Assembly: GCF_001677475.2 (NCBI RefSeq)
Contig: NZ_CP015229.1
Direction: 5' to 3' (one strand)
Origin: Escherichia coli
Lineage (GTDB): Bacteria; Pseudomonadota; Gammaproteobacteria; Enterobacterales; Enterobacteriaceae
DNA: 64,000 bases
Within the stretch, counting starts at the first letter, position 1, and each line of letters starts with the position of its first letter. Shown piece after piece: positions 15,638-21,600 of this stretch. Position numbers: made by a program.

Positions 15638-18600
15638 CGAAATTAGTTGCCGATCATTTAATCGCGGCAAACCTGGCAGGGCATGATTCTCATGGTATTG
15701 GCATGATCCCAAGCTATGTGCGTTCCTGGAGTCAGGGGCATCTGCAAATTAACCATCATGCCAAAATCGTTAAAGAGGCGGGGGCGGCGGTCACGCTCGA
15801 TGGCGATCGCGCATTCGGTCAGGTCGCGGCACACGAAGCGATGGCGCTGGGGATTGAGAAAGCGCATCAGCACGGTATTGCTGCCGTGGCGCTACATAAC
15901 TCGCATCATATCGGCCGTATCGGTTACTGGGCGGAGCAGTGTGCAGCGGCGGGGTTTGTCTCTATCCACTTTGTTAGCGTGGTCGGTATTCCAATGGTCG
16001 CGCCGTTCCACGGTCGCGACAGCCGCTTTGGCACCAATCCGTTCTGTGTGGTTTTCCCTCGTAAAGATAATTTTCCGCTGTTGCTTGATTACGCCACCAG
16101 CGCCATCGCATTTGGTAAAACTCGCGTCGCCTGGCATAAAGGCGTCCCCGTGCCGCCAGGTTGCCTGATTGACGTTAACGGCGTGCCGACGACCAATCCG
16201 GCGGTAATGCAGGAGTCGCCGTTGGGTTCGCTGTTGACCTTTGCCGAACATAAAGGCTACGCCCTTGCAGCGATGTGTGAAATTCTTGGCGGGGCGCTTT
16301 CCGGCGGTAAAACGACGCATCAGGAAACGTTACAAACCAGTCCCGATGCCATTCTTAACTGCATGACCACCATCATCATCAACCCGGAACTGTTCGGCGC
16401 GCCGGATTGTAGCGCGCAGACCGAAGCCTTTGCCGAGTGGGTAAAAGCCTCGCCGCATGATGAGGACAAGCCGATTTTGCTACCGGGCGAGTGGGAAGTG
16501 AACACGCGTCGCGAACGGCAGGAGCAGGGGATTCCATTGGATGCGGGAAGCTGGCAGGCCATTTGTGATGCGGCGCGGCAGATTGGTATGTCGGAAGAGA
16601 CGTTGCAGGCTTTCTGTCAGCAGTTAGCCAGATAAAAAAAGCCCGTCCAGTAACGGACGGGCAAACAAGGGTAACATAGGATCAATGAGGGTTAGAGCAT
16701 ATGCGTCTGTCGGCAAACAGACAGGGAAATACTTGTGCTGAACGTAGCGTAAACGCCTGATCCGTCCAACGGTTCGGATTTTGTAGGCCTGATAAGATGC
16801 GGTAGCGTCGCATCAGGCATTTGTTGCCGGATGCGGCGTAAACGCCTTATCCGTTCTACGAATTACTTATAAATTACCGCAGTACCGCTTAATTTATTGT
16901 TGTTGGTGGCGGAAGTAATGCTGTATCCACTAGCACCGGCTGCTGCCGCTTTCTCAGCCAGTTTTGCTTCCAGGGCATCGAGGGTGGATGCGCCATCGGC
17001 AGAAACCACGCCGATTTTATTCATGTTCTGTGCCTGGGATGCCGTTACCGGTTCCGCCGCGAACACGCCAAATGACAGAGTTGAAAGAGCCATAGCAGCA
17101 ACAACAGTATTGATAGTTTTCATAATTAATCTCTCGCAGGTGATTTTTGTATAAGTGACGTTGTTTCGTCGATGTGATGAGTATCACGTTTTTTTACGAG
17201 AGATAAAATAGAAGAGAATTGACCGCCTTGTTCAAATAAATTGATTGATATCTAACATACTGATAAACCATTTATTTGTTGTACTTATGGAATTGTTTTA
17301 TGCAGCGTGGCAGTCACAGCAGCGTTAAAGGCACGGAATGCCACGCAAAATACAAATTATACTCGCTATGCATCTCGCCAGTTGTAGTTAACGTAACTGG
17401 CTGTCTTTCGAACCTCTGAGATTATATCCTGTATAAGCTGGTTTTTGTAAATCTTTCTCCTGCTGACAATGAATGCATAAGCGCACGCCAGGAATGGCTT
17501 CCCGACGGGCTTGCGGGATGGGGGCACCGCACTCTTCACATTCATACAGGCTTTCGCCACGCGGAATTTCACCCCGAGCGCGGGCAATCGCATCTTCAAT
17601 TGTACTGTTGATCTGTTCGTTGACGGCGTCATCGTTAGCCCAACCGGATGCCATATCGTCCTCCCCATATCAATACTTGTACAGTTAAGTGTAGCTAATA
17701 TAGGGACGAACTCGGGCAGTTCAAGCGTCAGATCTCCGACCATTCCCGCAGCAGATTATGATAAAGATTAAGCAGCGACAGGATCTCTTCACTTTCGCCG
17801 TAGCGGCTTTTCAGCGACTGAATATTGTTGTCCAGTTCAAACAGCATGGCGCGCTTTTTATCATCGCGGATCATCGACTGGATCCACATAAATGATGCCA
17901 CTCGTACGCCGCGGGTTACGGGTGTCACGCAATGCAGGCTGCTGGAGGGATACAACACGAGATCGCCTGCCGGGAGTTTTACCCGATGTTGTCCGAAGGT
18001 GTCATTAACGACCAGTTCGCCGCCGTCGTAGCTTTGTGGATCGCTTAAAAACAGCGTGGCAGAAAGGTCAGTGCGCATCCAGCCGTTTTCTGGATGGCTG
18101 CGTACTGCGCCATCCACATGAAAACCATAGGTTTCATTGTTCTGATAGCGATTAAACAGCGGCGTGGAAAGGGTACGCGGCAAGGCCGCGGCAAAGAACA
18201 AAGCATGTTGGTTAACCGCGTTCAGCACCTCATTTTGCAGGGCGGCGTATAATGTGCTGCGGGTGTCGACCTGTTGATTGTTCTTAACTTGCGCACCTTG
18301 TGCGCCGGTGGTGACACGTCCATCCACCCATTCGGCTTGTTCCAGTTGTTCGCGAAACCGGGCGACGTCCTGTGGCGATAACACGCCGGGAATGTGGTAC
18401 ATCATACAAGTTCTCCAAAAAGTGGGGCCTGCGCCCCACATCTGAATCAGAAATGCATATTGGCTGTGAGCAAGAAGGTTCTTGGCTCGCCCGGGTGATA
18501 ACGGTAGCCGCTCTTGTTGATTGAGGCGACGTAATCGGTATCAAACAGGTTGTAGACGTTTAGCTGGAAGTCGAGATTGCGATTAACCCGATACCCCAGT

Positions 18601-21600
18601 TTGGCGTCGGCGACCCAGTAACCTTCGGTAAACGCTGGCGTTCCCACCGCGCCGTCTGAACCTTTATGCATACTGCCGATATAGCGTGCGCCCGCGCCAA
18701 CAGAGATATCATCGGTTGCCTGATATTGGCTCCATAAGGTGAAGGCGTGCTCCGGGGTATACGGCAGCGATGAGGAACCATCCTGGGCAACATCTTTGCC
18801 GTTTTTGATGGTTGCTTTTTGCTGGGTATAGCCGCCAATCACCTGCCACGCGGGAGTGATATTCCCGGCCACGGATATCTCATAGCCTTCGACGCGTTTC
18901 TTACCGTATTGCGAGTAAGTCCCGTCATCATTTTGCTCAACTTCATTTTCGATATCAGTACGGAACAGCGCGGCGGTGAGCAACAGGCGTTTATCCAGAA
19001 CCTGCCATTTGGTGCCAATCTCGCTGGTGTTGGCTTTTTGCGGTTTAAAATCGGTGCGGTTGGCACTGTTACCGCTGCCAGACTGCGCAAGGGCGAAGTT
19101 GTTGCCGCCCGGAGGCTGCTGGGAAACGGCATAGTTAATATAGACATTGCCGTTTTCCGTCAGGTGATACAGCGCCCCGGCTTTCCAGTTCACCAGATTG
19201 CCCGACTTGGCGGTGTCGACGGTGGTGACCGGAGAACCTTTTGCCACACCAGCAGGGCAGGTGATGGCACCGCGTCCGCTGCCGCCGCAGGCGGTGGCAC
19301 TGTCATATTCAGTATGATAATTATCCAGACGGATCCCGCCGTTCAGCTCAAAATCACGGGTGATTTGCAGAGTATCGAAGGCGTAAATTGCGAAGGTATC
19401 CGTCTGTCCATTGGCGTTTGCGCCGTTGCGCGTCAGGCCGCCGGGATGAATGCTGCTGTCAGGATGATAAATATTTACCGCAGGTAACGTCACCGGATTA
19501 ACGCCGTAGTTAGTCTGCGTTTCACGGGTAAATTCCACGCCGGTACTGACATCATGACCGATAGAACCGGTATAGAACGTCGAGGTCAGGTTGGTCTGGT
19601 TGGTGAGAATTTTATTACTCACATCTTTGGTATTCGCCGTGCGTGACCAGGTCCAGCTATTCACATCGCTGGTGGGCTGAGTAATATTCGACGCCCCGCC
19701 CATAATCGCCGTCATCAGGTAATCCTGCTTTACGCGCGACCAACGAGTAGTATTGCGAATGGTGGTGTTATCGTTGATGTCGTGCTCAAAACGCATGGTG
19801 GCGGTGTCGGTGGTCGAATCGTCGTAATCGGAATCCGTGCCGTAATAGTTATGAGTATCCACTTTTCCGGAATGATTCAGGGCCGCCGTTCCCGCAGATG
19901 GGGCAGAATAGCCCGGCAAACCTATGGTCGGAATGCCGCCGTCTGGCGTGTTGTGCTGGGTGACATGCAGATAATTAAGATACAAACGACTCGCTGTACC
20001 AAGGCCAAAAGCGACAGAAGGGGCGACGCCGTAACGCTCATTTTTGACTTTGTCGCGTCCGGCATCGTGCGTTTTTTCGCCCATTACATTCAGGCGCACC
20101 GCGGTGGTATCACCAATGACCTGATTGACGTCCAGCGTGCCGCGGCGGAACCAGGCGCTGCCAATACTGGCGGAGGCGTCAATGCCGGAATCATTGCGCG
20201 GCTGTTTGCTGATCATATTGATCGAGCCTGTCGGTGCGCTGCGCCCGTAGTCGGTGCCGGACGGCCCTTTAATCACTTCGACCTGCTCGGTATTGAAGGT
20301 GTCTCGCGAGACGCTGCCGATATCGCGAATGCCATCAATATAAATACTGTTAGAGGTATCGGCACCACGCATATAAATGGCGTCGCCAGTGGTGGAGTTA
20401 CCGTTCTCACCCGCAAAAAACGCACCCACGCCGGGGACGTTTTTGAGCGCGTCGGTAAGGTTGGTTGCGCCCTGATCTTTAATCACTTGTTCAGAAATCA
20501 CCGTCATCGTGCGGGTAGTATCCGCTACCGGACGCGAGAATTTCGGATCGGCAGATTGTTGTGGCGCATAAAGCGAAGGCGTTGATGCTTCGACAACCAG
20601 CGTGTCATCCGCGTTAGTTTGCCCTTCGGCGGCGAGTGCCTGAGCCACAGGCGTGATGCCAATACAAAGACCGGCAAAGAACGTGAGCGAATGAAATTGT
20701 CTGGCAGGGAAATTGCGATTGTTTTCCATTTTGCAGGTGACTTTTTCTTATATGTTGAAATTTTCACTGCCACGAGAAAGCCTCTCTGCGGATGCGATGC
20801 CACTGTTAATCTTGTGATAGTGTTCGTGCAAGTGATAATAATTTTGATAAGCATTATCACTTGGCGCGATTTTCTATCACCCATTGCGCGAAAAAGAAAT
20901 ACATTTATTTACATTGCGTTCATATTTGATGTTTTTTTGATTACAAAACAGGCGAAAACTGCATCCAGAGGCGAATGCAGTTACGTTGGTGGGGTTATTT
21001 GTAGATGGTTGCAGTACCGAACATCTGGTCATTTCCGCCTGCGGAATTAATGACATAACCTTTCGCGCCTTGCTCGCGCGCTTTTTCTGCCAGTTTATCC
21101 TCCAGATCGCTTAGGTTTGATGCGCCAGTTGCCGAAACGGTACCGGCGGGCCGTAGCTGACCGCTGTCCAGGTTACTCATCGGTTGCGCGGCATAAGCCG
21201 TGAGAGAGATTCCGCTCAGGACGGTGGCAATCAGTAATGTGAGGCACTTTTTCATAATGACATCCTCATAAATACAACGGGTAGTGCCTGATAAGTGTAG
21301 GTCGCCTGCGCGATGAAAATGACGCAAAAAATTGACAGAGATGCGCTTATTTTTTGAACGATATATTTTTACAAAATAAGACAAATCAATGACATGCATA
21401 ATGCTGATTTTTATGATGAATTGCCATAAACCATAGTCATGTGAAGGTTTTTAGAAATGATAAACGCAGCCAGATATTTACCCTGTTGCGTTATGCGGGT
21501 ATCTTACGCCGCTGCTTAAAGGAGAATGCTATGTCCGCCCAGAAACCGGGGTTGCATCCGCGCAACCGTCATCACAGCCGCTACGATCTCGCCATGCTTT

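Follow-up and report, generated by a model that had tools for sequence, protein, structure and literature searches.

Organization of the locus

The 64,000-nucleotide (nt) stretch of Escherichia coli DNA analysed here (contig NZ_CP015229.1 of assembly GCF_001677475.2; hereafter, the window) contains at 16863-21255 five minus-strand genes in the list of open reading frames (ORFs), mcbA, fiu, ybiX, ybiI and ybiJ, whose names are those in the RefSeq annotation of the matching E. coli region (Table 1). These comprise the gene for the catecholate siderophore receptor Fiu and its partner ybiX, the zinc-finger gene ybiI and, at the two ends, two genes for small proteins of the DUF1471 family. The genes, their order, strand and lengths are identical to those of E. 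coli K-12 ybiJ (b0802), ybiI (b0803), ybiX (b0804), fiu (b0805) and mcbA/ybiM (b0806), having only strain-level sequence changes as a difference; the window is collinear with K-12 MG1655, with 98.3% identity over 7 kb. By megablast, 5,425 of 5,426 complete E. coli genomes contain the interval, the best of them matching it at 98.4-98.5% identity.

By Pfam, fiu and ybiX encode a TonB-dependent receptor (Plug and barrel) and a 2OG-Fe(II) oxygenase with PKHD_C, as adjacent and co-oriented genes with a 41-nt spacer; the ybiX start used is the annotated one, 12 codons inside the longest ORF. YbiI matches PF01258 with 47 bits (cutoff 24.9), and its four cysteines are arranged as CEEC-x17-CIHC, a CxxC…CxxC pattern. 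Downstream of fiu, the run of co-oriented genes closes with ybiJ.

Table 1. Genes and sequence features of the fiu neighbourhood, in window coordinates
Feature	Position	Strand	Description	Basis
ybiJ	16863-17123	-	86 aa DUF1471 (PF07338) periplasmic protein; 98.1% nt identity to K-12 ybiJ	ORF, Pfam, RefSeq
ybiI	17388-17654	-	88 aa DksA/TraR-type C4 zinc-finger protein	ORF, PF01258 E=2.6e-12
ybiX	17728-18405	-	225 aa PKHD-type Fe(II)/2-oxoglutarate (2OG) hydroxylase; partner of fiu	PF13640 and PF18331, annotation
Candidate partial terminator/attenuator	18422-18439	-	GC-rich hairpin followed by UUUUU in the fiu-ybiX spacer	Terminator-like site, RNA fold
fiu	18447-20729	-	760 aa TonB-dependent catecholate siderophore receptor; Plug and barrel; 99.0% nt identity to K-12 fiu	
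Fur-box array	20828-20864	.	Four overlapping 19-mers in a 6-nt phase; 13, 14, 15 and 13 of 19 matches to GATAATGATAATCATTATC	
Putative fiu promoter	20853-20880	-	Sigma-70-like: GTGATA, 16-nt spacer, GATAAT	Consensus scan only
Likely mcbA terminator	20953-20985	-	Hairpin and U-rich tail right after the mcbA stop codon	RNA fold
mcbA (ybiM)	20995-21255	-	86 aa DUF1471 periplasmic protein, ybiJ paralog, upstream of the fiu promoter	PF07338 E=2e-19
rlmF	21531-22457	+	Divergent from mcbA	
hcxB	15550-16635	+	Convergent on ybiJ	

Fur boxes and expression in fur mutants

The Fur-box-like sequence that the initial annotation had placed upstream of fiu is real and corresponds to a phased array conserved across the fiu-bearing genera. 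In a scan with the 19-bp consensus, its best match (15/19, at 20840-20858) is the joint best in the whole window, a score of at least 15 being found in only 0.5% of the 250-nt background windows, and the array overlaps the promoter-like site found by consensus scan. A Fur box is kept 107-117 nt upstream of fiu in the fiu-bearing genera, mostly with 14-17 of 19 matches. Upstream of ybiI, ybiJ and mcbA, the Fur scores are at background (8-14/19) in all the loci of the survey described below, including those of species without fiu. A 14/19 match inside the 3' end of ybiX (17754-17772) did not stand out as a conserved site. The other 15/19 match in the window (52331-52349, plus strand) lies inside the AT-rich coding region of pdeI, among several matches of 13-14/19, and is probably a chance effect of base composition (44% GC at 51-54.5 kb).

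In published data, fiu, ybiX and ybiI all belong to the Fur-1 iModulon (Gao et al. 2023, PMC10164565). According to the supplements of that study, the transcription unit is fiu-ybiX in MG1655 and fiu, ybiX and ybiI in W3110 and W, and a Fur peak from chromatin immunoprecipitation with exonuclease treatment (ChIP-exo) lies in the intergenic region upstream of fiu. If the MG1655 position of this peak (840869-840893) is in version-2 coordinates, a numbering deduced from the position of fiu in version 3, the peak would lie 115-139 nt upstream of the fiu start, at about 20844-20868 of the window, and thus coincide with the Fur-box array.

In the expression data of the same study (PMC10164565), the log2 change of fiu upon fur deletion ranges from 5.2 to 10.0 across nine strains, and the response fades along the downstream genes. 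The values in MG1655 are 5.47 for fiu, 5.21 for ybiX and 3.04 for ybiI, and those in W3110 are 10.0 for fiu, 7.1 for ybiX, 5.3 for ybiI and 3.1 for ybiJ, with 0.75 for rlmF. The two flanking DUF1471 genes, for which the initial annotation had pointed to fur-mutant data, differ in MG1655: ybiJ is mildly derepressed (1.24, p=3e-6), whereas mcbA is unresponsive (0.40, p=0.31), and rlmF is at 0.02. Read counts in the fur mutant drop about 5-fold from fiu to ybiX. The hairpin in the spacer between these two genes has a predicted energy of -19.3 kcal/mol (z=-3.1), and that after mcbA of -14.6 kcal/mol (z=-2.9).

Comparative synteny

The region was compared in 80 loci with 10-kb flanks, one genome per species, using RlmF as the housekeeping anchor; 76 loci are enterobacterial, and all their ORFs were mapped against the window proteins and the ten DUF1471 paralogs of K-12. 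In the interval between ybiB and rlmF, the arrangement ybiJ-ybiI-ybiX-fiu-mcbA was found in 20 of the 76 loci, and as many have ybiJ-ybiI-mcbA without fiu-ybiX, the commonest order without fiu being ybiB-[hcxB]-ybiJ-ybiI-mcbA-rlmF. Only ybiJ-ybiI are present in 19 (Salmonella, Kosakonia, Phytobacter and others), ybiJ lies directly beside mcbA in five (Atlantibacter species, Cedecea and one record labelled Citrobacter freundii), fiu-ybiX without mcbA occurs in three (Klebsiella), and ybiJ-ybiX-fiu without ybiI or mcbA in two (Kluyvera). The bracket of paralogs around fiu-ybiX is seen in only 20-23 loci, belonging to Escherichia, the Citrobacter freundii group, Leclercia, Silvania and Pseudocitrobacter.

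The gene ybiJ is kept in 71 loci, the majority of them without fiu, and ybiI adjoins ybiJ in 63, with or without fiu-ybiX. In turn, ybiX was seen in all fiu-bearing loci but one, and no intact ybiX was found without fiu sequence. The fiu-ybiX-ybiI unit of the initial annotation therefore stands as a Fur-co-responsive transcriptional unit in E. coli but not as an evolutionary one, since ybiI persists in loci lacking fiu-ybiX and carries no separate Fur box. The pair fiu-ybiX is lost on its own and lies in a variable slot between ybiI and mcbA. This pair resembles other pairs of a Fiu/PiuA/CciT-type receptor and a YbiX/PiuC/CciO dioxygenase, with fiu and ybiX likewise adjacent, under one Fur-controlled promoter and co-occurring; pairs of the fiu-ybiX type are co-conserved across Proteobacteria (bioRxiv 10.1101/2024.10.16.618771). 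As a difference, the E. coli transcript appears to run on into ybiI and ybiJ, two unrelated genes that elsewhere do not belong to the receptor-dioxygenase pair.

Two lineages document the loss of the pair. In E. albertii, the sequence equivalent to 17745-20952 of the window is absent and the final 17 nt of ybiX are retained; because this remnant was kept, the state is a deletion and not a lack of insertion. C. werkmanii, within the fiu-bearing C. freundii group, has no fiu-ybiX. Outside Escherichia, the identity of Fiu to the E. coli protein tracks that of YbiB and YbiO (r=0.95-0.98), and the GC content of fiu-ybiX is unremarkable; a recent transfer of the pair was ruled out by this normal GC content and by the divergence of Fiu tracking that of the flanking genes. 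Cassette loss mediated by the two paralogs acting as repeats was also ruled out, since they have 50% nt identity, a longest identical run of 9 nt and unlike flanks, and because the end points of the E. albertii deletion are in ybiX and downstream of mcbA.

Other gene content was observed in the interval between ybiI and rlmF, which appears to be a hotspot of gene turnover. Pseudescherichia vulneris (locus L052, 1974-9512) has a 7.6-kb cluster of LysR, branched-chain-type ABC transporter, ATC hydrolase and M20 peptidase genes between ybiI and mcbA, and in Kosakonia oryzendophytica (L046, 9290-9943) a flavin reductase-like gene occupies the mcbA position, between ybiI and rlmF. In Kluyvera georgiana (L030, 4084-4446) and Kluyvera genomosp. 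3 (L082, 8952-9281), the gene at the mcbA position is highly diverged (45-53% identity) and encodes a lipoprotein-like signal that ends in …TTGC or …TTAC where an AxA site is usual; in both of these loci, two ORFs take the place of an intact fiu.

Relationship and origin of ybiJ and mcbA

The relatedness of the two small flanking proteins proposed in the initial annotation holds over their full length. In a pairwise alignment, YbiJ and McbA have 47% identity over 86/86 residues, ungapped (E=1e-22), and the likeness reaches far beyond the C-terminal motif (GTAVIYK in YbiJ and GTATIYK in McbA), as 34 of 79 residues (43%) are identical without the last seven. Each is a single-domain protein of 86 aa matching PF07338, with 64.8 bits (E=7e-18) for YbiJ and 69.8 bits for McbA (cutoff 27), and has a hydrophobic N-terminus with a signal peptide, read by eye, ending at FAA|EP in YbiJ and YAA|Q in McbA. 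At the nucleotide level, ybiJ and mcbA share 50% identity, with 31% at third codon positions and no in-register run above 9 nt; in a comparison of their flanking DNA, no similarity outside the coding regions and no repeats able to bound a cassette were found. Because of this low identity and the dissimilar flanks, the duplication is considered old.

Among the ten K-12 paralogs of the DUF1471/YhcN/BhsA-McbA family, YbiJ, McbA and BhsA resemble one another most; structures have been solved for neither YbiJ nor McbA, and the closest available ones are 2NOC and 2MA4. The literature states that the family is restricted to Enterobacterales, and the paralogy of ybiJ and mcbA has already been stated there. 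In the rlmF-anchored survey, which is not family-wide, syntenic DUF1471 orthologs were found only in Enterobacteriaceae loci, with none beside rlmF in Glaciecola or Maribacter; in the sole Erwiniaceae locus (Pantoea, L079), a single YbiJ-like gene lies at a distance of 9 kb from rlmF. Orthologs of mcbA were identified in Escherichia, Citrobacter, Leclercia and Huaxiibacter. In a 50%-identity representative library, many matches were frameshifted metagenomic fragments and were filtered out. Two distant family representatives (P0143 and P0147), whose contexts were inspected for the pre-duplication state, both lie in unrelated neighbourhoods. Within-subfamily identity is 68% for McbA, 73% for YbiJ and 83% for BhsA, and to judge from these sequences McbA evolves faster than the other two.

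The position of BhsA, whose gene is unlinked and about 330 kb from the locus in K-12, bears on whether the duplication was local. Similarity scores in K-12 are 72.0 bits for YbiJ-McbA, 73.6 for YbiJ-BhsA and 69.7 for the third pair of the trio, YhcN being next, and the mean identities of the mature regions are 45.2%, 46.0% and 40.0%, with McbA-BhsA as the least similar pair. The subfamilies were sampled with 28 YbiJ, 29 McbA and 18 BhsA orthologs plus outgroups in an 84-sequence neighbour-joining tree (500 bootstraps, for both full-length and mature regions), in which no pairing exceeds 31%: YbiJ+McbA has 17-31%, YbiJ+BhsA 10-17% and McbA+BhsA about 10%. Four-taxon consensus parsimony for the three proteins gave zero informative sites. 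Profile comparison is highest for YbiJ-McbA (157, versus 136 and 115), a score confounded by alignment depth, and with composition-corrected BLAST the McbA orthologs of other genera score BhsA above YbiJ. Salmonella has been reported to lack McbA, with YcfR/BhsA as the closest relative there (Eletsky et al. 2014, PMC4092069).

The sequences thus neither support nor refute a sister relationship, and an origin of ybiJ and mcbA from one local duplication is plausible from synteny, because the two genes have the same orientation, are separated by no more than one small gene in the loci without fiu and lie side by side in five loci, and because other tandem DUF1471 pairs give a precedent. These pairs, yjfN-bsmA in E. 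coli and yhcN with a ycfR-like gene in Salmonella, are co-oriented neighbouring paralogs like ybiJ and mcbA and are taken as signs of family growth via local duplication; as a difference, ybiJ and mcbA are separated in E. coli by three unrelated genes.

Proposed history and regulation of the locus

Here it is proposed, as the probable explanation, that the locus is an ordinary conserved neighbourhood of Escherichia and its relatives, in which two old paralogs flank a variable slot, the slot holds a vertically inherited and Fur-repressed fiu-ybiX pair, transcription reads through to ybiI and ybiJ, and mcbA is insulated. Both ybiJ and mcbA are old and belong to the DUF1471/YhcN family, whose small periplasmic proteins are associated with stress and biofilms; their duplication would most likely have taken place in an ancestor within Enterobacteriaceae. 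In E. coli, fiu-ybiX occupies the slot between ybiI and mcbA, and the pair would have been inherited vertically, with repeated deletions in other lineages; that two paralogs bracket fiu would then be a by-product of the position of the pair.

As for regulation, Fur-Fe(II) would bind the box array overlapping the single fiu promoter, binding and derepression being published and the overlap being given by consensus only. When iron is scarce, transcription would start at this promoter, run through fiu, be partly stopped at the hairpin before ybiX and continue, weakening, through ybiX and ybiI into ybiJ, whereas mcbA, upstream of the promoter and with its own predicted terminator, would give no Fur response. 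A single promoter with decaying read-through is suggested because the response fades with distance from the fiu promoter and is absent from the upstream gene mcbA, and because no other Fur boxes were found.

Several points weigh against this explanation. Loss from a vertically inherited state is evident in E. albertii and C. werkmanii, but at deeper nodes of the species tree it is presumed. The read-through into ybiI and ybiJ is deduced from the expression gradient and not from transcript mapping, and an indirect effect of Fur on separate ybiI or ybiJ promoters is possible. The fiu promoter and both terminators are consensus or fold predictions only, and a single origin of ybiJ and mcbA by local duplication lacks sequence proof, as seen in the bit scores, bootstraps and identities given above.

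The initial annotation had instead read the arrangement as an ancient local duplication around an iron-responsive module, the paralogs and fiu-ybiX-ybiI forming one ancient composite unit. The paralogs do have the same orientation and the same ungapped length, are placed symmetrically with intergenic spacers of about 265 nt, and bracket fiu-ybiX in several genera. This reading is contradicted by the synteny survey and is highly improbable: 20 loci have ybiJ-ybiI-mcbA-rlmF without fiu-ybiX and 19 have no mcbA, fiu-ybiX and mcbA come and go independently of each other (in Klebsiella and Kluyvera, fiu is present but a normal mcbA is not), and ybiI remains where the pair is absent. The lack of DNA likeness or bounding repeats around the paralogs, the end points of the E. 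albertii deletion outside them and the Fur response of just one of them argue in the same direction. It is also unlikely, although to a lesser degree, that mcbA derives from another family member, such as a BhsA-like gene, through a dispersed duplication or a transfer that placed it beside rlmF, its closeness to ybiJ being a coincidence. YbiJ resembles BhsA about as much as it does McbA, both by bits and by identity, and the corrected scores of the non-Escherichia McbA orthologs, the low YbiJ+McbA bootstrap and the situation reported for Salmonella point the same way; yet McbA-BhsA is the least similar pair, with a bootstrap of about 10%, the profile score favours YbiJ-McbA, and in 25 loci ybiJ and mcbA share their orientation and have no more than one small gene between them, which together with the known tandem pairs speaks for a neighbouring origin.

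With respect to ybiJ itself, its Fur-dependent induction could be adaptive and not passive read-through, the protein acting, for example, as a periplasmic partner or envelope protector when Fiu is made. YbiJ has been reported to be envelope-associated, with an RcsF-like structure and a deletion that alters cell size (preprint 10.1101/2025.02.11.637708), and the derepression of ybiJ is significant in both MG1655 and W3110 fur mutants (2.4-fold and 8.5-fold, respectively). Such a role is improbable given that no Fur box was found upstream of ybiJ or ybiI in any genus scanned, that a gene kept mostly in loci without fiu cannot depend on Fiu for its core role, that the induction drops with distance from the fiu promoter as read-through predicts, and that the reported inputs to ybiJ are acid, glutathione and ciprofloxacin, not iron. 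Under the preferred explanation of a conserved neighbourhood with read-through, a further consequence is conceivable but doubtful, namely that position alone split the regulation of the paralogs, ybiJ and the small RNA (sRNA) ZbiJ of its 3' untranslated region (UTR) being inducible by iron starvation where fiu-ybiX is kept and losing this input where the pair was deleted, while mcbA never gains it. If true, and if the input is physiologically relevant, read-through and not a Fur box would have brought YbiJ and ZbiJ into the Fur regulon, as accessory members specific to certain lineages.

The literature and the standard annotation already cover the genes, their families, the paralogy of ybiJ with mcbA and the control of fiu, ybiX and ybiI by Fur. 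The survey adds that fiu-ybiX is a separately lost pair in a variable slot, that ybiI belongs evolutionarily with ybiJ and not with fiu-ybiX, and that read-through from a single promoter best accounts for the way ybiI and ybiJ respond to Fur in E. coli. This is of use when reading lists of the Fur regulon, as co-induced neighbours need not be iron genes.

Additional features of the region

In the K-12 annotation, ZbiJ corresponds to 16634-16729 (minus strand) at the far end of the ybiJ 3' UTR, and it ends at a strong terminator hairpin (16641-16662; -17.6 kcal/mol, z=-3.8). It is overlapped on the opposite strand by ybiE, of 19 codons (16701-16760, plus strand). ZbiJ could be Fur-responsive because ybiJ is weakly so; a literature search on ZbiJ found nothing on the sRNA. 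Just downstream of the ybiJ stop codon, a match to naRNA4 (Rfam RF02564, 67.2 bits) was found at 16786-16856 (minus strand), which by eye resembles palindromic repeats of the repetitive extragenic palindrome (REP)/bacterial interspersed mosaic element (BIME) type; such repeats would probably also explain why megablast matched the E. coli genomes at a median of four places each.

The 73-nt spacer between ybiX and ybiI (17655-17730, minus strand) has a predicted hairpin (-21.3 kcal/mol, z=-2.7) that pairs the Shine-Dalgarno region of ybiI (GGGGAGGA), and a short TATAG-containing motif located about 25-30 nt upstream of ybiI recurs in many genera. Both may reflect translational or promoter control of ybiI.

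Among the proteins of the interval and its flanks, HcxB is 88% identical to that of Escherichia sp. E1V33 and 98% to that of E. coli, McbA is 100% identical to that of E1V33, and RlmF has 98% identity to those of E1V33 and E. whittamii and 97% to that of E. coli. This mosaic of identities suggests recombination between lineages in the region.

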